Source: an uncultured Phycisphaerales bacterium (GTDB taxonomy: Bacteria > Planctomycetota > Phycisphaerae > Tepidisphaerales > Tepidisphaeraceae). From it: a stretch of 64,000 bases of DNA. The notes beneath the pieces were generated by a model, which saw nothing but the letters and a program-made list of their open reading frames with translations, ran no database searches and was not told the DNA's origin. A program made the position numbers and the translations under genes. Every line of letters begins with the position of its first letter. Within the stretch, counting starts at the first letter, position 1. Positions 17,859-32,060 of this stretch are shown here, one piece after another. The stretch lies in NCBI GenBank assembly GCA_963758525.1, contig CAVWVQ010000003.1, positions 512,001 through 576,000 of the forward strand, written 5' to 3'.

Positions 17859-19408
17859 ATGAACGCTGAACTGATCCGCATCGTGGACGGTATCGCCCGC
17901 GATAAAAACATCGAACGCGAACAGGTTTACTCCGATATCGAGCAGGCCGTGGCTTCGGGTCTGCGCAAACATTTCAACACCGAAGACACGACCGAATTTC
18001 AGGTGCAGTTGGATCGCTCCAGCGGCGACATCAGCGTCTCCCGCCAGGGTACCGTGATCCCGCTGCATTCCATGGGCCGCATCGTGCGCAGACCGTCAAG
18101 CAGGTGATGATCCAACTCATCCGCCAGGACGAGCGCGGCAGCATCTACGAAGAATACAAGGACCGCGTCGGCACGATCGTGAACGGGACCATTGCGCGGT
18201 TCGAGGGCGGCACGATGATCGTCAACCTCGGCCGCGTCGAAGGGATCATGCCGCGGAGCGAGCAGATTCCCGGCGAAACGCATCAGCCCGGCGAGCGCGT
18301 GCAGGCGCTGATCATGGAAGTGCGCGACACGCTCAGCGCCGTGAAGATCATCCTCAGCCGCAGCCACCCGGAGCTGATCCGCCGCCTGTTCGAGCGCGAA
18401 GTGCCGGAAGTGGGCGAACGCACGATCGAGATCAAGGCGCTGGCCCGCGAGCCTGGGCATCGCACGAAAATCGCCGTCAGCTCCATCGACAGCAAAGTGG
18501 ACGCGGTGGGCGCCTGCGTTGGCGTGCGCGGCAGCCGAATCAAGAACATCGTCGAAGAGCTCGGCGGGGAAAAAATCGACATCGTCCGCTGGAATGAATC
18601 GAGCCAGATTCTGATCGGCAACGCGCTCAAGCCGGCGGAGGTCACGGAAGTGGCGCTCTGCTTCGAGCTGGGACGCGCCACGGTTGTGGTCAACGACGAT
18701 CAGTTGAGCCTCGCGATCGGCAAGCGCGGACAGAACGTGCGCCTCGCGGCCCGCCTGACCGGCTGGGACATCGACATTCTTACCCCGCCGGAATTCCAGA
18801 ACGGCGTGCAGCGGCTGGACCAGACGCTCAAGAAGATCGAGGGGATCACGCAGGAAATGGTCGACAAGGTGATCGCGCTGGGTCTGATCGACGTGCGCGA
18901 CATCGAGGAAGTTGGAGCCGACCCGCTGATGGAAGTGCTCGGTCTGGACGAAGCCAAGGCAACGGACGTGGTCACGCGCTGCGGGGACGAGGCGAAGATT
19001 GTCGCCGTCGAGCAGGAAGCGAAAAAGGCCGCCGAAGCATCGGCCAAGGCCAAAGACCGCGCGGCAATGCTCTCGGGCGGGGGCAGCGCCGGGAAATCGG
19101 ACTCGCTGGGCGGCTCGGCTGCCGCCCGGGCGTTTGCCGATGCGCTGCAGATTCCGCAATCGGACGAGCCTGCCGCGGACGTTTCGCAAACGATGCCCGG
19201 AGCGATGGAAGCCGCCGAGGGCGGCGCCCCCGAAACCGTCACGCACAAGCAGACGGCCGAGTCCAACGGCGACGATCTTTCGCCCGAGGAAGAGGCGATT
19301 CAGGGACTCAGCGAGCCGCTGGAGAATCACAAGGAATTAACTGACGAAAATGAGGAGACCGCCGCTCTGGCGGAAGGGCGCATTGCGCCGCCCGAAGAGC
19401 AGGCGTAG
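17859..19408 (+). CDS. nusA: Transcription termination/antitermination factor NusA (one apparent 1-nt deletion near 18084)
   Basis: MNAELIRIVD...GRI joins AQTVKQVMIQ after the shift; S1 and KH motifs REPGHRTKIAV, DAVGACVGVRGSRI, LSLAIGKRGQNVRLAARLTGW. Confidence 0.95.
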
Positions 19409-23273: not shown

Positions 23274-23893
23274 AGAACGCAACGAAACACGCTGACGAAT
23301 TGAAATCGCTCTTCCGCCGGCTCGTGAAAGAGTGGAAACCCGCTCCGCGCGAGCCGCAGGAAGCCCTGCGGGCATTGGTGCGCGGAGCGATGTCATATGA
23401 CATGCCCGACTCCAAGGCCGCCGAGGCGATGCGCCACATTCAGGAGGAGTTCGTCGACCTCAACGAGCTTCGCGTTGCCACCGACCTGGAAATTCACGAG
23501 CTGCTGGGGGTGCGCTATCCGGCCATCGAGCAGCGCGTGGCCATGATCACGCTGTCGCTCAACAACATCTTTGAGCGCGAGCACACGATGAATCTCGAAC
23601 GGCTCAAAGGCGTGAGCAAGCGCGACGCCCGCCAGTTTCTCCGGGAATTGCCGGAGATTCATCCGTTCGTGGAAGCCTATGTGATGCTCTATGCCTTTGA
23701 TGGGCACTCTTTCCCCATCGACAATGAAATCCTCGCCTTGTTGCGCGAGCATGAGATTGTCGATGAACAGACGCCCCTGGAAGAAGCGCAGCGGTTTGTC
23801 GAGCATCATCTGAAAGCGGAGGAGTGCTACGAGTTTTTCGTGGCGATTCGCCAGGAACTGATGCAGGATCACAAGGGAAAGAAGAAGAAGTAA
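23270..23893 (+). CDS. Conserved hypothetical protein (HhH-GPD/endonuclease III-like fold, degenerate)
   Basis: FVDLNELRV...IFEREH..NLE...FL..LP.....V.AYV.L.....HSFPID pattern; ATGA overlap with rbfA. Confidence 0.6.
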   Translation: MKNATKHADELKSLFRRLVKEWKPAPREPQEALRALVRGAMSYDMPDSKAAEAMRHIQEEFVDLNELRVATDLEIHELLGVRYPAIEQRVAMITLSLNNIFEREHTMNLERLKGVSKRDARQFLRELPEIHPFVEAYVMLYAFDGHSFPIDNEILALLREHEIVDEQTPLEEAQRFVEHHLKAEECYEFFVAIRQELMQDHKGKKKK

Positions 23894-23906
23894 GGAGAAG
23901 GCCCGG

Positions 23907-24167
23907 AGGCACAGAGGCACGGAGGCACAGAGGCACGGAGGCACGAAGGGAAGACGAAAAAAATGAGAAGGCACGAAGACACCGAGGCGCGGAGGAACGA
24001 AGGGAAAAGCAGCAGAGATGGCGCGGACAATTCCGGCGCTTCTGCTCTTCCCTTCGTGCCCGCATGCCAGCGTGCCTCCGTGCCTCTCCTCACTTCGACT
24101 CTTCCCTTCGTGCCTTCGTGCCTTCGTGCCTTTCCTCACTTCCACTCTTCCCTTCGTGCTTTGGTGC
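23907..24167. repeat. Inverted octamer arrays (GGCAC(A/G)(G/A)A / TTCGTGCC)
   Basis: AGGCACAG/AGGCACGG units at ~23907-23948 mirrored by CTTCGTGC units at ~24053-24167. The same unit occurs at 3529-3556 and ~9684-9708. Confidence 0.8.
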
Positions 24168-24177
24168 CTTACCACAT

Positions 24178-25069
24178 ATGACCGACCGACTTCCCAATGA
24201 CACGCTTCGGCTCGGCCTGCCCAGCGGAAGCCTTCAGACAGCAACCATCGACTTGTTCGGCGCGCTGGCTACCACGTTTCGCTGCAGGATCGCAGCGTTT
24301 TTCCGCGCATTGACGACGACCAGCTTTCGGCGGTGCTGTTTCGCACCAGGAGATCAGCCGGTACGTGGTCGATGACATCGTCGACTGCGGATTGACCGGC
24401 TACGACTGGATCGTCGAAAACGGCAACGAACAGGACGTGGTGGAAATCTGCCAGTTGAGCTATTCGCGGGCGTCGGCCAATCCGGTGCGCTGGGTGCTCG
24501 CCGTCCCCGAGGAAAGTGCCATCCGCGATCCGAAGGATTTTGAGGGGAAGATCATCGCCACGGAACTGGTCAGCACCACGCGCCGCTATTTTGCATCGCG
24601 CGGGATCAACGTGACCGTCGAATTTTCCTGGGGCACCACCGAGATCAAAGCCCGGCTGCTCGACGGCATCGTCGAGTCCACCGAAACCGGCTCTTCATTG
24701 CGGGCCAATAATCTGCGCATCGTCGATACGCTGCTGACCAGCACCACGCGGTTCGTCTCCAGCAAACGCTCCTGGGCCGTCGCCTGGAAACGCGAGAAGA
24801 TGGAGAACATGGCCATGCTTCTGCGCGGCGCGATCGAAGCGCGTGCCAAGGTCGGTCTGAAGATGAACGTCCCCGAAGCCCGGCTGCAGGAAATCATCGC
24901 GTTTCTGCCCGCGGAGAAAAGTCCGACTGTGAGTCGACTCGCGGATAGCGACTGGGTGGCAGTGGAAGTCATCCTCGAAGAACGCCAGGAGCGCGAGTTG
25001 ATTCCTTCATTGAAGCGCGCGGGGGCGACGGGGATTATCACGTATCCGCTGAATAAGGTCATCCCCTGA
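24178..25069 (+). CDS. hisG: ATP phosphoribosyltransferase, long form (two apparent 1-nt deletions near 24260 and 24345)
   Basis: [48 protein letters not shown], and C-terminal regulatory domain SPTVS...[10 protein letters not shown]. Confidence 0.93.
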
Positions 25070-25092
25070 ATAGAGCTGTAGACGATTTTCCC

Positions 25093-25254
25093 GTAGGGTC
25101 CGCTCGAGGGCGCCAAGAGGCGAAAGTTTGACAAACGGCGATATCGCCCTCGTGCGGACCATCGGGGTGCGCCGCGCCCGATGGTCCGCAGAAGAGCCGA
25201 TTGCACTCATTTCTTCGAACCACGTTTCTCGTGCGGCTCTTCAACGGACCCTAC
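25093..25254. repeat. GTAG-type REP doublet, copy 1 (left of TA cassette)
   Basis: GTAGGGTCCGC...GCGGACCAT...ATGGTCCGC...CGGACCCTAC with internal stems CGAGGGCG/CGCCCTCG and AAGAGCCG/CGGCTCTT. Confidence 0.88.
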
Positions 25255-25324
25255 GCGCTTGACATGTTCCGACATATCGCGAGATAATGTACAGAACTCA
25301 GTACAATGCTCCGATGAGGTGTCC

Positions 25325-25618
25325 GTGACCCGCAGCTCAGATATCACCAGCTTTACCGACTTTCGTGCGCATCTGCGCGATCACCTGAACGAACGGAAGG
25401 CAACAAGCCGGCCGCTATTTGTCACCACCAACGGCGAAACCGAAGCCGTTGTGCTCTCCCCCACCGCGTTCGATGAGCTGATGGACCAGGCTGAATTGGC
25501 GAAAAGCCTTGCAATGCTTGACCGGAGCATGGAGGACGTAGAAGCCGGACGCGGTCAACCGCTGAAACAAGCTGTTCGCGATATTTGCGCAGAGCTTGGA
25601 CTGAAGCTCGCTCGCTGA
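25325..25618 (+). CDS. Type II TA antitoxin, Phd/YefM family
   Basis: DITSFTDFRAHL...RPLFVTTNGETEAVVLSP..FD pattern; GTG start with GAGGTG RBS. Confidence 0.88.
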   Translation: MTRSSDITSFTDFRAHLRDHLNERKATSRPLFVTTNGETEAVVLSPTAFDELMDQAELAKSLAMLDRSMEDVEAGRGQPLKQAVRDICAELGLKLAR

Positions 25619-25956
25619 GCTACCGTGTCTTTGTTACCCCCGCCGCTCGCGCCGAGATTCTGGAACGCGCCCGCTATATTGCCGTTGACTGCCAAGCTCC
25701 ACTCAGTGCGGCACGATGGCTTGAACAAATATTTGCCGCCGCAGACACGTTGGCCGATTTCCCGCGCCGCTGTGCTCTGGCGCCGGAGAACGCTTTTCGA
25801 AACTACGAAATTCGTCGCCTATTGATCGGCGACTACTTTCTGTTATTCACGATTGTCGAAAGCGATCAAACGGTGTGGGCGATCGGCTTTCGGCATGGCA
25901 GCCGCTTGCCCCGCCCGGATGAGTTGCCTGATTCGCCTCCTCGCGAGGAGGGGTGA
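25615..25956 (+). CDS. Type II TA toxin, RelE/ParE family
   Basis: YRVFVTPAARAEI....YIA....AARW....L..FP.R.....E.....IRRL..GDY.LLF.I......V....FRHG. Overlaps the antitoxin stop (CTGA); start codon uncertain. Confidence 0.85.
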   Translation: MSYRVFVTPAARAEILERARYIAVDCQAPLSAARWLEQIFAAADTLADFPRRCALAPENAFRNYEIRRLLIGDYFLLFTIVESDQTVWAIGFRHGSRLPRPDELPDSPPREEG

Positions 25957-25962
25957 TTAGCC

Positions 25963-26123
25963 GTAGGGTCCGCTCGAGGGCGCCAAGAGGCGAAAGCATG
26001 ACAGACTTGGGCCATCGCCCTCGTGCGGACCATCGGGGTGCGCCACGCGGATGGTCCGCAGAAGAGCCGCGTCGCACTCTTCCTTGAACCACGCTTCTCG
26101 TGCGGCTCTTCAGCGGACCCTAC
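25963..26123. repeat. GTAG-type REP doublet, copy 2 (right of TA cassette)
   Basis: Direct repeat of 25093-25254: stems conserved, loops diverged. Confidence 0.88.
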
Positions 26124-26125
26124 GC

Positions 26126-26510
26126 GCCTATCGCTCAAGGCAATATGGGGCTGTAACACAAATTGACATTGGTGGCGATTGGTACAATAAGCCGGAATGT
26201 CATTCGCGTAGGGCGGGATTCATCCCGCCGTCTCCTTCCTTAGTAACTTCGATTGCTCTATATGGATTCTGCGTTCATTGGTCTCTCGGAGTGGTGCTCG
26301 TAGTTTTCGCGTTTGCCGCATACTTTCGAGCGAAGCGGCTCCTTGCACCGGGGCGTTGAGCGGATGATGCTGCGGGCTGAGCGTTCAGAGTGGGTGTACC
26401 AACCCACCGTCCCCTCATTCTATGACTTGGCGATTTGCCGTAGGGCCTATCGCTCAAGGGAATATGAAGCTGTAACACAAATTGACATTGGTGGCGATTG
26501 GTACAATAAT
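26126..26510 (+). promoter_or_regulatory. Duplicated ~63-bp promoter-like segment (copies at ~26126-26190 and ~26446-26510)
   Basis: GCCTATCGCTCAAGG(C/G)AATATG(GG/AA)GCTGTAACACAAATTGACATTGGTGGCGATTGGTACAATAA occurs twice and contains TTGACA and TGGTACAAT. Confidence 0.6.
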
Positions 26511-26516
26511 TTTGAC

Positions 26517-26714
26517 ATGTCCACTCGAACGAGTCTGAACGTCTCTCTAACTCCCGAGCTCGACCAGTTCGTTCAACAGCGGGTCGCGACCGGCCGCTAT
26601 CAAACCGCCAGCGAGGTCGTCCGTGAGGGTCTTCGCCTCGTTCTGCAGGACAGCCGCGGAACGCACGACCTGCGCATCTCCCCTTGGCACGGTCCAGAGA
26701 ATTGCGTCGGTTGA
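26517..26714 (+). CDS. ParD-family (CC2985-like) ribbon-helix-helix antitoxin N-terminus, truncated or fused
   Basis: MSTRTSLNVSLTPELDQFVQQRVATGRYQTASEVVREGLRL matches the ParD RHH consensus; no cognate ParE follows. Confidence 0.8.
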   Translation: MSTRTSLNVSLTPELDQFVQQRVATGRYQTASEVVREGLRLVLQDSRGTHDLRISPWHGPENCVG

Positions 26715-27290
26715 CAACATCTCCGTGGTCAGGCATGACGCCGCATACATGCTGTTGGTAGAGAAACAAGGCATTTTCAATCGCTTGAAACAGGACGGAT
26801 TCGCCGAACAGCATCGTTGCGTGATGCTGAGCGGCAACGGGTATCCTGGCCTGTCATTTCGCCGGGTCATCCACACGCTGCACCAACAACTCCGCATCCC
26901 GCTCTATGTCTTGGCTGACAATGACCCGGCCGGTTACGAGATGTTCTTCCTCGTTACGCGCGGCTCCGCTCGCACCACTGGGAGCATCAGGGCCGCTTCG
27001 GCAGTTCCAGGAGCGGCGTTCGTCGGCGTGCAGGTCCGCGACTACGGATTGTTCTCTCTGCCGGATGACGCCGGCATCACATTGAACGAGGAGGAGCGGC
27101 TACAATTATTGCGTCTCAAGTCTTGCACGTGGTTGCGACAAGACCCGCTTTGGCAACGAGAATTTGACCAGCTGTTGGAACGCGGGTTTAAGGTAGAGAT
27201 GGAAGCGTTTTGTTTCTTTCGCTCTCGTTCATGGCGTCGTCGTACCTGCCAGACCGCATTGCGCGGCTAACCACCTTTGGGCTCCGCGAA
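26638..27290 (+). pseudogene. DNA topoisomerase VI subunit A (Spo11-like) TOPRIM-domain fragment, frameshifted
   Basis: MLLVEKQGIFNRL..D.F.....CVM.SGNGYP....RR....L...L.IP.YVLADNDPAG, WQRE...LL..GFKVEMEA, then in the next frame SFMASSYLPDRI. Collinear with the Topo VI-A C-terminal half; the winged-helix domain with the catalytic Tyr is absent. Confidence 0.72.
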
Positions 27291-27433
27291 GCGGCCAGGC
27301 GTGATGCGTTCGCCGTTCCCCCTGGTACGACGCAGCAAACCAGCGGGGATGAATCCTGCCCTACTGCGATTGACCACCCCGTCACCTCGTTGGCTCCGTG
27401 GAACTCGAAGCCCGCTTTTGCTACGATGTGAGT

Positions 27434-27507
27434 GCTGAGGTAGCTCAGTTGGCTAGAGCGTCGGGTTGTGGTCCCGAAGGTCACGGGTTCGAGCCCCGTC
27501 CTCAGTA
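27434..27507 (+). tRNA. tRNA-His (GUG), non-canonical: no genomic G-1, G1.U72, A73, CCA not encoded
   Basis: Acceptor GCTGAGG/CCTCAGT; D-arm GCTC-AGTTGGCTA-GAGC; anticodon arm TCGGG-TTGTGGT-CCCGA (GTG at 27468-27470); T-arm ACGGG-TTCGAGC-CCCGT; discriminator A at 27507; base at -1 is T. Confidence 0.95.
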
Positions 27508-27525
27508 TTCCCCCTTTTTTGAATT

Positions 27526-29039
27526 ATGGCAGATTCTGCTGCACCAACCAGCGACCTCGTCGCCCCGGAAACGCTCAAGGGTTTTCAAGACCTTTTGCCG
27601 CGGGAGATGATTCTGCGCAACAGCGTCGTCCGCAAGATCCAGGCGGTCTATGAGAAATTCGGCTTCCTGCCGATCGATACTCCTGCCCTGGAATACCTCG
27701 CGACGCTCATCGGAACCGGCGGCGACGAGACGAATAAATCGCTGTTCCGCCTGGAGAGCCCCGAGGCGGATCAGATCGCGATGCGGTTCGATCTGACGGT
27801 GCCATTCGCCCGGCTGATCGCGCAATATCCGGACAAGCTCACGCTGCCGTTCCGGCGGTATCACATCGGGCCGGTGTTTCGGGTGGACAAGCCGGGGCCT
27901 GGGCGTTTTCGGCAGTTTACGCAGTTCGATATCGACGCGGCCGGGTCGAAGAACATTGCCGTTGACGGAGAGATCGTTGCAGCCATGACCGAGGCGTTGC
28001 GCTCCGTCGGCTTCAGCAATGATGCCACCGCAGACGCGAAGCGGCGGTTTGAGATTCGCGTCAACAACCGCAAACTGATGGATGCGGCGCTGCTCGACGC
28101 CGACATCTCCAGCCCGCAGACCGCGACGCACGTGCTGCGCGTGATCGACAAGCTGCTGAAGGTTGGCGTGGACAATATTCGCCGCGAGCTGGGGGAGGGA
28201 CGAACTGATGAATCGGGCGACCGCATCCGCGGCGTTGGCCTTTCGCCTGCAGTGATCGACAGGGTGCTCGCCTTTATCGATATCCGCGGCACGTCGCGCC
28301 ATGAAGTGGTGGAGCAACTGCGAAAGAAGCTTTCCGATTCGGAAGCCAGCCGCGAGGCGCTGCTCCAGATGGAGCAGTTGAGCGGCGCGCTGGACAATCT
28401 TGGAGTGAGCGAAAGCGAAGCGGTGTTCGATCCGAGTCTCGCCCGCGGGCTGGATTATTACACCGGGCCGGTATTCGAGGCATGGCTGCCGGGCGCGCCG
28501 GAATTCGGCTCGATCATGGGCGGGGGCGCTACGACGGTCTGGTGAAGCGCTTCTCAAATCTCGCGATCCCCGCAACGGGCGCGTCGATCGGCATCGATCG
28601 ATTCCTGGCTGCCGTCAGCGCGCTGGGAATTGCGGACGCTCCCGCGACGACGGTCAAGGTGCTGGTGATCGCGATGGCGGGCATGCCGGTCGGCCCCCTG
28701 CTGGCAATTGCCTCCGAGCTTCGCCGCGCCGAGATTGCCACGCAGCTATTCTTCCCGCCTGATGTGGAGGGGCCGGGCATCGCCAATAAGACCTCCATGA
28801 AAAAGCAGATGTCGTACGCCAATGCCGCGGGGATTCCGGTTGCGATCATCGTCGGTGAAAATGAGATTGCCGCGGGGCAGGTTTCAATCAAGGATCTCGA
28901 CGCGGGCAAGGAGCAGCGCGCGGGCATCAGCGGTCGTGACGAGTACAAGGAAGCCGGCAAAAGCGGTCAGGTCACCGTCGCCCGCGGCGACATGATTCGC
29001 ATCGTTCGCGAAATGCTGGGGGCGGCATCTGGACGCTAA
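27526..29039 (+). CDS. hisS: Histidine--tRNA ligase, alphaproteobacterial-like type (one apparent 1-nt deletion in a G run near 28522)
   Basis: KGFQD, MRFDLTVPFAR, motif 2 FRVDKPGPGRFRQFTQFDID, insertion LGEGRTDESGDRIRGVGL, RGLDYYTGPVFE, GGGRYDGLV..F....PATGASIGIDR, anticodon-binding domain KKQMSYAN...IIVGENE. Confidence 0.95.
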
Positions 29040-29068
29040 TAACCGGTGCGTAAGCAGCGGGAGCCGGC

Positions 29069-29332
29069 GTGGCAAAGAAGAATCGCAATAAGCCGCTCAC
29101 TTCGCGCACGCTCGACGGGGAGGCTTACCGCAAGGGGGCGCTGGAGCGGCTCGACGACGCGGGTCACCTTTTGCGTCATGAACGCCTCGGGGATGCAGTC
29201 TACCTTGCCGGACGCGCTGTCGAGGGAATGCTCCGAGCGGTGATCTGGTACCACGATGATCTTTGTCTGTGTCGTAGAGGAATCTCAAAAGACCACGACT
29301 CCGTTCGAGCTTCGGCTGTGAATGGCGTATAA
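29069..29332 (+). pseudogene. HEPN-like protein N-terminal fragment
   Basis: ALERLDDAGHLL....DAVYLAGRAVEGMLRAVI resembles the HEPN N-terminal helices (AxYLAGYAVECxLKA). Similarity stops after ~60 aa. Confidence 0.55.
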
Positions 29333-29360
29333 TTCGCCCTCCGACAGGGAGTCGTCACCA

Positions 29361-32060
29361 ATGCCGCGGGCTGCTTTGCGCATCTTGCTTTTCACGGGCG
29401 TCACCACCGCGATGGGATGCGCGTCACATGGGACACAGCCGGCCGTAACGCAGGCAGCCCCGATTGTGATCGTACCGGGTCCCACCCCGCGCCCGTCGAA
29501 CATTCGCGCCGAGATCCCTCTCGATCAGGTTCCGCCGCGCCCGAGCCTGGCTTCGCCTGCGTCACCGAGCACGTCGAATCCGCCGCCCATCGAGGCGGTT
29601 CGGGACTTCGCGCAGGCGCGCATCGCGATGCTCGACAACGAGCGGTACACCGCGATCAATCTCCTCGAAAGGGCAGTCGCGCTCGATCCGGACAGCTTCG
29701 AGCTCAATGAAACCCTCGGCACGCTCTATCAAGGGAATGCCACGTCTGACGAGAGATCGATCGATGCGTTCGAGCGTGCCGCCGCGATCGATCCGGATCA
29801 TCTGGAACTGCAGATCAATCTGGGGCGACAATATCTGGCCAGCGGAAAGACATCGCTGGGCACCCGGCATCTTCTGCTGGCGCTGCAAACCACTGATTAT
29901 GAGCGCGACGAGCCATCGGCAGCCGAGTTGGAGCTTTTCCTCTCAAACGCCCTTTCTCAGCAAGGCTATGCTCGCGCTGCGGTCACGCTGCTGGAGCGAT
30001 TATCGGTGCGGCTGAGCAGCCCGAGCATGGGAATGCGAGCCCGCCCGGCGATGCTGCTCCTGCTCGAACATCCCGAGGGGATCACGCTCCAGATCGGAAT
30101 TCTCCAGCAAAAACGCGGTCGATATGCCGAGGCGCTGGCGGCGTACCAGGAAGTGCTGCAACGCGATCCTGGGAATGTGGAAGCGCAAGGGCGTGCCATC
30201 GAAACCCTGGCGGCCCTGGGCCGGCATGACGACGCGGCCGAACGCGCCGCCGATCTGGTCGTGAAATCGCAGGCGCGCGAGCCCTCTCTATCGCTGCTCC
30301 GCGACTCGCTTCGCAACGCCGGCGGCGATCTGGCGGTCTGCGATCTGCTGGGCCGCCTGTATCAACAACATCCGAAGATCCGCCAGCTCCTGTTCGCACG
30401 GCTCGACCTGCTGCATGCGATGGGAAAGTCCGATGACGCCGCGCGGGCGCTGGCCGACGCGACGGCAGCACATCCAGACGATCTGGAGCTCTCGGCGCAT
30501 CAGTTCCACGCGCTGGCCGACCGCGGCGATCGCGCCGGCGCCGCCCGCCTGCTGATCGGCGATACCGCCCGCCATCCTGAGTGGACTGCAGAAGCGGTTC
30601 AACTTTTTGAGGAACTGCTGCAGCCTACCTCCACCGGCCGGCTGAAGCTCGAAGATCTTCGCGGGTTGAAGCTGGATCGATCGGAAGAACCGGCCCGGCT
30701 CTATTGGATCGCGCGCTGGGCGACCAACTGGCATCGCGACGGCATCGCCCGCCAGTCGATCGAGCAGGCAGTCGCCGCGGCCCCCGTTTTTGCTCCCGCG
30801 TACCGGGATCAATTGGAATTCATTTTCTCCCAGCTTCAGGGTGCGCCAACCACCAATCCTTCCGCTGATGCACTGGCCCGGCGGGCGGCGGAGAGCAACC
30901 GATCTCTCGGAGCCGAGTTGGGGGGACTGATTCTGCTGCGGCTGAATCAACCTGCCGAGGCGTTGCAGCAACTTGCCGCCGCCGCGAAGGGCAACCCCAA
31001 CGACGCGCAGCTCGCGCTCGAGTACGCCGAGACAAACAGCGCCAACGGCGACGATCCCGGTTTCGAATCGGCGATGTGGAAGCTGCTCAGCGACCATCCG
31101 ACGTATGACGATGGATATCTCACGCTCTACACCTATTACGTCGCGCGCGGGTCGGAGGCGATGGACGACCGGGTCCTTTCGACCTGGCTCGCGGCGGAGC
31201 CGGACAGCGTCGGCGCGCTGCGGCTGCAGGCGCGCGACTACTTCCGCGCCAATCGTTCTGACGCCGCCGAGGCGATTCTGCTGCGGCTTTTGAACACCCG
31301 CGGAGATGATCCGCAAGTTGTGAGCGGTGTATCGGCATTCTATGCCCAGACTGGCAAACCGGAGGGGCTGCCGAAGACGCTCGAAGATCGGCTGGCGCGC
31401 GATCCTGGAAATTTCGCAGCCGTCTCGGCGCTGGCGCAGCTGTACGTGGATGCGCACAGACACTCCGATGCATCGCGTGTGCTCGACTCCTCTCGCAAAT
31501 ACGAGGCGCATGATCCGGACGTGCTTTACATTCTTTCTGGGCAGTACATCGAGAACGATCAGAAGGATGTCGCCGAGGAGGTGCTGCGCCAGGTGCTGGC
31601 AGTCGATCCGACGCACGCCGGAGCCGCGAACGATCTGGGATATTTCCTGACCGAGGAGGGGCGACAACTGCCCGAGGCCGAGGCGTTGATCCGCCGGGCG
31701 GTGGAGGCCGAGCCGTTCAATGCGTCCTTTCTCGACAGCATGGGGTGGGTCCTGTACAAACTGGGCCGATTTGCCGAAGCGCAGAAATATCTTGAGCACG
31801 CCGCCGGCGCGGAAGCCGACCCGGTTGTGTTGAATCATCTGGGTGACGATCAGTATCGTCTGGGCGACAAAGACGCCGCGTCGAAGAGCTGGAAGCAGGC
31901 GGGGGAGCGCCTGCTGGCGGCGGGCGACGGCCGCGAAGATTTGAAGGGTCTGCAGCAGCAGCTTCTGCAGAAGCAGCAGCAGTTGGACTCGGGCCGGCCG
32001 GTCGATGTCGCGCCAGCGACCCAGCCGGCCGCGACACAGCCGCAGGCGAAAGGGCAGTGA
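29361..32060 (+). CDS. Large TPR-repeat lipoprotein
   Basis: Lipobox-like LLFTGVTTAMGC; many TPR-like helices; C-terminal ANDLGY...A...IRRAV..EP.N...LDSMGWVLYKLG...HLGD. Confidence 0.85.
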   Translation: MPRAALRILLFTGVTTAMGCASHGTQPAVTQAAPIVIVPGPTPRPSNIRAEIPLDQVPPRPSLASPASPSTSNPPPIEAVRDFAQARIAMLDNERYTAINLLERAVALDPDSFELNETLGTLYQGNATSDERSIDAFERAAAIDPDHLELQINLGRQYLASGKTSLGTRHLLLALQTTDYERDEPSAAELELFLSNALSQQGYARAAVTLLERLSVRLSSPSMGMRARPAMLLLLEHPEGITLQIGILQQKRGRYAEALAAYQEVLQRDPGNVEAQGRAIETLAALGRHDDAAERAADLVVKSQAREPSLSLLRDSLRNAGGDLAVCDLLGRLYQQHPKIRQLLFARLDLLHAMGKSDDAARALADATAAHPDDLELSAHQFHALADRGDRAGAARLLIGDTARHPEWTAEAVQLFEELLQPTSTGRLKLEDLRGLKLDRSEEPARLYWIARWATNWHRDGIARQSIEQAVAAAPVFAPAYRDQLEFIFSQLQGAPTTNPSADALARRAAESNRSLGAELGGLILLRLNQPAEALQQLAAAAKGNPNDAQLALEYAETNSANGDDPGFESAMWKLLSDHPTYDDGYLTLYTYYVARGSEAMDDRVLSTWLAAEPDSVGALRLQARDYFRANRSDAAEAILLRLLNTRGDDPQVVSGVSAFYAQTGKPEGLPKTLEDRLARDPGNFAAVSALAQLYVDAHRHSDASRVLDSSRKYEAHDPDVLYILSGQYIENDQKDVAEEVLRQVLAVDPTHAGAANDLGYFLTEEGRQLPEAEALIRRAVEAEPFNASFLDSMGWVLYKLGRFAEAQKYLEHAAGAEADPVVLNHLGDDQYRLGDKDAASKSWKQAGERLLAAGDGREDLKGLQQQLLQKQQQLDSGRPVDVAPATQPAATQPQAKGQ

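Follow-up and report, generated by a model that had tools for sequence, protein, structure and literature searches.

The window analysed here is a stretch of 64,000 nucleotides from an uncultured Phycisphaerales bacterium of the family Tepidisphaeraceae (assembly GCA_963758525.1, contig CAVWVQ010000003.1, positions 512,001 to 576,000 of the forward strand), which carries a tRNA-His gene directly followed by hisS, the gene for histidyl-tRNA synthetase (HisRS). The tRNA-His(GUG) gene (27434..27507, + strand) was called by ARAGORN and scored 68.6 bits with the Rfam tRNA model. Position -1 (27433) is T, so that no G-1 is encoded in the genome; tRNAs of this type are termed ΔG-1 below. The acceptor stem (5′ GCTGAGG, 3′ CCTCAGT) gives G1·U72, C2:G71 and U3:A70, and the discriminator A73 (27507) is followed by TTC, CCA not being encoded. 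The original prediction of T-1, G1·T72, A73 and no CCA was thus borne out by ARAGORN, by Rfam and by the letters themselves. No matching contig of run X1 covered 27433 or 27507. Encoded CCA is rare in the host genome generally, as at most 12 of its 82 ARAGORN tRNA calls end in cca. The C2:G71 pair was shared by 75 of 75 distinct ΔG-1 tRNAs; what we take to be the same conserved pair is printed as ‘C3-G71’ in PMC3064791. The D-loop, AGTTGGCTA, has 9 nt with the extra base 20a, a length that is also seen among the canonical tRNAs of other families of Phycisphaerae and is not diagnostic alone, and the pair closing the anticodon loop (G31:C39), U38 and the T-arm resemble the canonical tRNA-His of the host family.

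A possible extended -10 box, TG-c-TACGAT (27419..27427, + strand), was recognized by eye and with a pattern of our own and ends 6 nt before G1; the promoter scan did not report it. With such a box, transcription of the tRNA and hisS might start at or next to G1, with little or no leader. A leaderless promoter as a trait of the whole clade was considered and set aside as unconvincing (11 of 95 ΔG-1 cases versus one of 29 canonical ones).

The hisS gene (27526..29039, + strand) has its ATG at 27526, 18 nt past A73, and is the sole HisRS gene of the genome. A one-base frameshift at a run of five G residues (28522-28526), which the original prediction did not mention, divides it between two frames (27526-28545 and 28482-29039); read through, the product has about 504 aa. 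This frameshift is likely an assembly error, because an X1 contig of 151 nt has one extra G in the run (depth 2.1, weak by itself), the aligned homologues displayed all read GGGRYD across the break, and nusA (17859-19408) and hisG (24100-25069) in the window are likewise split, as is typical of long-read assembly errors. In all alignments the enzyme was read through the break with X.

A class IIa fold with motifs 1–3 and an HGTP anticodon domain were assigned to the window HisRS. It holds RVDKPGPGRFRQF, LGEGRTDESGD and PATGASIG, so that all three enzyme motifs described earlier, together with the 18 nt spacing between tRNA and hisS, were found in the sequence; the motifs were present in all six alphaproteobacterial enzymes and in none of 32 canonical rows, and are therefore not due to chance. 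The 80 best loci listed, representing the closest enzymes to the window HisRS in the genome contigs scanned, were used for wider counts. The motif-2 pattern KP.[PL]GR was found in 70 of these loci, in six of six alphaproteobacterial and 24 of 25 planctomycete enzymes and in none of the 32 canonical rows, and the GRxDxSG insert had a similar distribution (70 of 80 clade members, six of six alphaproteobacterial, none of 32 canonical). In the motif-2 loop of the window enzyme, KPGPGR, Gly stands at a position held by Gly in all six alphaproteobacterial enzymes and by Gln in 30 of the 32 canonical rows; Gln at this position is reported to mark readers of G-1:C73, with Gly instead in the RRCH clade (PMC3937112). 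The alignment also placed Lys where an Arg binds the G-1 phosphate, and showed a C-terminal insert in the anticodon-binding domain, which was judged from the alignment view after a regular expression had missed it in the window enzyme. In canonical enzymes the G-1 pocket loop is RGGR, its Gly-Gly being Asp-Asp in Caulobacter crescentus according to PMC4357726; the window enzyme has SPEA in its place, and the alphaproteobacteria sampled are Asp-rich there (from the alignment only). A PDB search returned distant best matches and no solved structure from the clade of the window enzyme.

The host genome (G000) is a metagenome-assembled genome (MAG) of 6.47 Mb in six contigs, 90.9 % complete and 6.1 % contaminated. 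The original prediction had proposed looking in it for a second hisS, a Thg1-like gene and a second, canonical tRNA-His. No second hisS was found in the whole assembly, and a search for Thg1 (PF04446) gave no matches in this 90.9 %-complete genome, whilst the control search was positive in three of 14 genomes. A second tRNA-His, of which the original prediction was unaware, does exist (C3:3765639-3765710), with T-1, C1:G72 and A73, so the known tRNA-His set offers no G-1:C73 backup. It lies in an array of 15 tRNA genes (C3:3764011-3766477, L308:9012-11478) amid ordinary chromosomal genes and resembles the adjoining tRNA-Gln(CUG). G002, G005 and G021 have comparable arrays, with C73 in their array-borne tRNA-His. 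A gene for a type A RNase P RNA is present.

These results bear on the idea that, as in most eukaryotes, G-1 is added post-transcriptionally and is required by the enzyme. A73 is indeed the eukaryotic state, and some bacterial Thg1-like proteins are reported to accept A73 substrates (PMC3245924), but besides the negative Thg1 search, the pocket and motif-2 changes are typical of G-1-independent enzymes, and adding G-1 reportedly cut charging by C. crescentus HisRS five-fold (PMC3064791). We therefore regard post-transcriptional addition as exceedingly improbable.

The native arrangement is seen in G001 and G002, two genomes of the same genus, in which the canonical tRNA-His lies directly before one gene and hisS directly behind another, presumably hisF and tig, respectively, from a reading of the translations. 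Both sites are assembled in the host genome, with no tRNA at the first and other genes at the second. The former hisS site behind tig (C4:97505-103932) holds three genes whose products we take, again from translations, to be an outer-membrane factor, a membrane-fusion protein and a resistance-nodulation-division transporter. A HisRS match was found in 39 of 40 relatives, and all were only 24–34 % identical to the window enzyme (26–27 % within the genus). Twenty-nine tRNA-His loci of relatives were fetched and 27 parsed, including L132 from G004, flagged as unpublished, which also entered the tRNA-body comparisons; all 27 have G1:C72 and C73, and 26 have G-1. The U72/A73 pattern was absent from all 140 other genomes of the family, which speaks against the alternative, left open in the original prediction, that the system is native to a Phycisphaerae lineage. 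Both partners have been completely displaced, at species level, and the replacement is recent and restricted to a single lineage.

In two family members, G018 and G003, hisG, a tetratricopeptide-repeat (TPR) gene and yebC are contiguous, and the segment between hisG and the TPR gene in the window (approximately 25070..29321, about 4.2 kb) is therefore an insertion; in the two genomes of the same genus, synteny breaks directly after hisG. The flanks are host genes: hisG on the left (24365..25069, + strand; its 5′ part is frameshifted in the assembly) and the TPR gene on the right (29322..32060, + strand). The named homologues of the neighbouring YebC were from Humisphaera sp./Tepidisphaeraceae (78–82 % identity), in keeping with the planctomycete host proposed at the outset. 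YebC of still closer relatives, outside the genomes sampled, was 87–92 % identical. The empty insertion site in G018 and G003, together with the emptiness of both native loci in the host, likewise favours the earlier suggestion that the pair arrived as a two-gene cassette. The GC content at third codon positions (GC3) of hisS is 0.77, compared with 0.74–0.81 in its neighbours.

An assembly artefact, in which foreign DNA was mis-joined as the insertion, or in which the MAG lacks the true hisS and holds a pseudogene instead, would be compatible with the contamination (6.1 %), the completeness (90.9 %) and the frameshift, and no X1 contig bridges the insertion junctions. However, the native sites are assembled and empty, so that the cell would be without HisRS; exact short X1 contigs of similar depth fall in hisS (28801-28951) and in the TPR gene (29842-30161), and another supplies the frame-restoring G; the GC3 of hisS equals that of its neighbours; and frameshifts are common here, seven of the 48 frames tested being split, with some redundancy among them. 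We consider an artefact very unlikely.

The 80 closest loci came from records titled Omnitrophota, Hydrogenedentota, Sumerlaeota, Verrucomicrobiota, Nitrospirota, Ignavibacteria/Bacteroidota, Acidobacteriota and Actinomycetota. Over about 490 columns, the window HisRS was 57–62 % identical to the closest enzymes among the matches listed (Omnitrophota/Verrucomicrobiota-type), 36–40 % to those of Rhizobiales and Rhodobacterales, and 23–25 % to the native enzymes and that of Escherichia coli (25 % for E. coli). Phylogenetic trees were reconstructed from 89 of 159 collected proteins, with a more careful tree of 41; the enzymes of Caulobacter (C. crescentus) and SAR11 were not among them. A single ΔG-1 clade that includes the alphaproteobacterial enzymes was separated from other HisRS with support of 100/99 in the 41-protein tree and 100 by the Shimodaira–Hasegawa-like approximate likelihood ratio test (SH-aLRT) in the 89-protein tree. 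Within it, an 11-row subclade (100/99) unites the window enzyme with those of Omnitrophota, Sumerlaeota, Verrucomicrobiota and Hydrogenedentota. The five alphaproteobacterial enzymes (95/87) have as their sister an enzyme from an actinomycete-titled record (99/95), and both lie inside a clade of other planctomycete enzymes (100/100). Grouping the window enzyme with the alphaproteobacteria was rejected by the approximately unbiased (AU) test (p-AU 5.2e-59; 25 rows, LG+G4), as was a single clade of all non-alphaproteobacterial ΔG-1 enzymes (p 0.0015, for a group chosen after the tree had been seen). The designation ‘alphaproteobacterial-type’ in the original prediction holds in so far as the enzymes share the ΔG-1 clade, but an alphaproteobacterial origin does not agree with the tree or the AU test. 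The pair probably came from a member of the Omnitrophota/Sumerlaeota/Verrucomicrobiota/Hydrogenedentota subclade and not from an alphaproteobacterium. Because their enzymes nest inside a planctomycete-rich subclade, the alphaproteobacteria sampled may themselves be recipients of the ΔG-1 enzyme. HisRS-like second matches in G308, G370 and G293 had a very long branch, are probably HisZ and were set aside.

The type of tRNA followed the type of enzyme. A tRNA-His was found in 22 of the 80 closest loci, 19 of them with the tRNA on the same strand and within approximately 400 nt upstream of hisS; the remaining 58 genomes were searched whole and 51 matched, so that 73 of the 80 genomes gave a tRNA-His. 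The 74 parsed copies from these genomes comprised 73 with A73 and 72 with U72, and position -1 was T in 51, G in 10, C in seven, A in three and unknown in three (L128, L136, L160, L180 and L182 were not parsed and lie outside the tRNA counts). The lone C73 copy is on a chimeric-looking contig. In a sample of 400 Planctomycetota genomes, real U72/A73 tRNA-His genes occurred in 23, concentrated in a few families, and each of these genomes has the divergent enzyme; a 24th pattern match, in G137, was not a tRNA. G376 and G286, from the same families as the U72/A73 planctomycetes, gave only weak, canonical-like matches. The adjacency of tRNA-His and hisS, whose survey across Planctomycetota the original prediction had proposed, was seen in seven of the 23 genomes, with the tRNA just upstream of hisS. 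As kin are not independent, these counts are descriptions rather than statistics. The enzyme clade covaries with tRNA type across phyla, and the linkage of tRNA and hisS decays over time, being kept at about a quarter of the loci and at none of six alphaproteobacterial ones.

Three further loci may be recorded here. One contig of G086 (C2; L229, L230 and L301) carries both tRNA-His types and two HisRS types, but G086 (L095) was rejected as a natural dual-system cell, since the contig is likely chimeric, its GC content changing abruptly near 28 kb. Of the sequence retrieved, the first ~20 kb have a GC content of 0.51–0.62 and are ~90 % identical to G088, whereas the next 20 kb have 0.41–0.45 and no such match. 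A linked pair in a record titled Bifidobacteriaceae (L046:503-2087) has a tRNA with G1:C72/A73 and a 7 nt D-loop, and a two-residue insert in motif 2. G105, a planctomycete that already has a linked pair, carries another U72/A73 tRNA-His, whose sequence is of a different type (C1:4430326-4430378, L257).

From the sequences compared, we consider it highly probable that the HisRS and the G-1-less tRNA, found in an insertion in a genome from which the native genes are absent, arrived together by horizontal transfer, and that the enzyme reads G1·U72, A73 and the anticodon rather than G-1:C73. The tRNA type, the enzyme motifs and the clade agree with one another, as would be expected of the matched ΔG-1 pair originally proposed. 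RNase P would cut the transcript at +1, or transcription would start at G1, and the host CCA-adding enzyme would complete the 3′ end; the imported HisRS, with its altered pocket and motif-2 loops, would then charge the imported tRNA-His. Presumably neither enzyme, imported or host, could use the tRNA of the other system. With cross-charging so poor, only a linked pair would be functional on arrival, and the genes would therefore travel linked. The imported pair would have made the native pair redundant and, given this mutual non-use, both native genes could be lost afterwards. For C. crescentus HisRS, U72 and the anticodon are reported as the main determinants, E. coli tRNA-His being charged 250-fold worse (PMC3064791), and for Consotaella HisRS, G1·U72 and A73 are reported to weigh more than GUG (PMC7590224).

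Several observations weigh against this reading. The hisS gene is frameshifted in the assembly, and a MAG that is 90.9 % complete and 6.1 % contaminated could be missing a canonical copy. Gly at the motif-2 Gln position occurs in just 37 of 80 clade members, and the Bryobacterales records L047, L056 and L062 have ΔG-1 clade enzymes with KPQP, in which Gln is kept, alongside U72/A73 tRNA-His, so that Gly is an imperfect marker; nor is the pocket loop Asp-Asp as reported for C. crescentus. The insertion holds no recognizable integrase, transposase or att site, and searches of IMG/VR (four loci, 34–37 %) and of phage and plasmid collections gave no close homologue. The linkage of tRNA and hisS is kept at only 19 of the 80 loci, the tree does not resolve the place of the window enzyme inside its 11-row subclade, and the nearest donor candidate is only 62 % identical among the matches listed. 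Finally, the body of the window tRNA matches the canonical tRNA-His of G001 at 47 of 53 positions and any sampled ΔG-1 tRNA at no more than 43 of 53, and this host-like body is a poor fit to a simple, intact co-transfer.

The host-like body would fit a course in which hisS alone had been imported and a copy of the native tRNA-His had been rebuilt in its acceptor stem and moved beside it. Such a course would require at least 11 acceptor changes to the exact clade state, a 9 nt D-loop where tRNAs of the same family mostly have 8, and relocation to a position held by a tRNA in 19 of 80 clade loci, and we judge it improbable. Alternatively, and as a refinement of joint arrival, the imported ΔG-1 tRNA may have taken short native tracts (anticodon loop, 30-40, and T-arm, 50-66) by gene conversion during a period of coexistence, keeping its foreign acceptor stem. 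Positions 2, 71, 72 and 73 match 75 of 75 distinct ΔG-1 tRNAs and none of 15 family tRNAs, whilst 13 of 15 family tRNAs and none of 75 ΔG-1 tRNAs have G31:C39, and U38 is present in 15 of 15 versus six of 75. The body has a log-odds score of +10.6; in leave-one-out scoring no ΔG-1 tRNA exceeded -14.6 and no family tRNA fell below +19. The number of informative bases is small, however, kin are not independent, and host-like and ΔG-1-like positions are interleaved (29:41, 45 and 49 being ΔG-1-like). Canonical tRNAs of other Phycisphaerae families score 5–23, which would suit convergence or an unsampled donor, and the T-arm string also occurs in a host tRNA-Asp. A mosaic origin is accordingly put forward with somewhat less than even confidence.

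Joint arrival of the pair can be set beside known systems. The RRCH pair, as represented by C. crescentus (PMC3064791, PMC3937112), is reported to share with the window the lack of an encoded G-1, G1·U72, A73, the 9 nt D-loop and the lack of Thg1. Also common to both are KPGPGR with Gly for Gln, the GRxDxSG insert, the C-terminal insert in the anticodon domain and the clade itself (100/99). The window pair differs in its planctomycete host, in its subclade (36–40 % identity) and in a pocket loop that is SPE-type rather than Asp-rich. Its tRNA is 18 nt from hisS, whereas none of six alphaproteobacterial hisS loci has a tRNA within 1.5 kb, and in the Sinorhizobium meliloti record tRNA-His and hisS are 70 kb apart. 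Moreover, the RRCH pair is an old synapomorphy, whereas the window records a recent displacement in a single lineage and has a host-like anticodon loop. The canonical pair (E. coli; Thermus thermophilus 4RDX, PMC4357726) shares the class IIa fold, motifs 1–3 and the HGTP domain, but the window pair lacks its G-1:C73, RPQxGR loop and RGGR pocket.

Among mobile operons of a tRNA and its synthetase, the closest precedent is that of TrpRS-A in bacteria of the Candidate Phyla Radiation (CPR). The CPR tRNA-Trp(A73)-TrpRS-A operons and the archaeal-type TyrRS/tRNA-Tyr pairs are reported to have been acquired laterally and to have brought in a foreign tRNA identity, the tRNA and its synthetase sharing an operon, as in the window; the TrpRS-A operon stands beside a canonical pair and has archaeal donors, whereas the window has a bacterial His pair and the native pair is fully replaced (PMC5370408). 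HisRS of Acanthamoeba and Trypanosoma also pairs with tRNA-His that lacks G-1, without Thg1-dependent addition, according to PMC9976931. Unlike the window enzyme, these are eukaryotic, and they lie outside the trees made here. We know of no linkage between their tRNA-His and HisRS genes.

In a 2023 review, only alphaproteobacteria and some protists are named for the G-1-less system (PMC9976931), and the ΔG-1 enzyme is said to occur only in alphaproteobacteria (PMC3245924); a G-1-less 8/4 tRNA-His has been reported from phages and an alphaproteobacterium (PMC5389517). A ΔG-1 pair in bacteria outside the Alphaproteobacteria was not described in the literature covered, which left out supplements and most subscription journals. 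By every sequence feature compared save the pocket loop, which has lost Gly-Gly but does not have Asp-Asp, the window pair is, as predicted, a ΔG-1 HisRS/tRNA-His pair, and is new in its subclade, its gene linkage and its host. One species among 141 sampled family genomes has swapped both partners with the vacated sites still visible, which makes for an unusually clean record. Such a swap weakens the ΔG-1 trait as a phylogenetic marker, in which role it has been used to place SAR11. More tentatively, and without claiming even odds, we propose that histidine tRNA identity is horizontally mobile: a two-gene unit of greater age and much broader distribution than the Alphaproteobacteria would jump between phyla, pass through a dual orthogonal stage of which the mosaic tRNA would be a record, and evict the native genes, the RRCH alphaproteobacteria being one more recipient, supplied from the planctomycete-rich subclade. 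This offers a testable origin for the alphaproteobacterial ΔG-1 pair and, if true, would answer where the RRCH tRNA-His came from.

The ΔG-1 enzymes found here also form a large pool for orthogonal translation, with ~60 % identity among themselves and less than 40 % to those used so far. As a candidate orthogonal pair the window pair would be only partly novel; ΔG-1 pairs from C. crescentus, Afifella and Consotaella have reportedly been put to such use before (PMC3064791, PMC7590224). C. crescentus HisRS reportedly needs the GUG anticodon, which limits recoding (PMC3064791, PMC7590224), and is poorly active in E. coli (PMC7590224).

Upstream of the tRNA, the insertion contains a type II toxin–antitoxin (TA) module with a Phd/YefM antitoxin and a ParE toxin (25181..25956, + strand) and a fragment of a Toprim-domain gene (topoisomerase VI subunit A/Spo11; 26623..27270, + strand). 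An ORF on the opposite strand (26313-26714, -) has a C-terminal half that we take to resemble a ParD-type ribbon-helix-helix antitoxin. Palindromic GTAG-containing repeats surround the TA module (25083-25260, 25952-26230 and 26429-26510; also 27346-27364); they are presumably similar to repetitive extragenic palindromic (REP) elements, and part of one (26126-26230) has some 260 copies in the genome. At the right edge of the insertion lies a short ORF of 87 aa (29069..29332, + strand) with no Pfam or NCBIfam match. Outside the insertion, runs of 8 nt tandem units and their inverse lie between two core genes (23891-24176). Elsewhere in the genome, five ARAGORN calls of ‘tRNA-Ser(GGA)’ with identical short ends and a spacing of ~77 nt (C3:4444824-4445528) are more likely a CRISPR-like repeat array than tRNAs.

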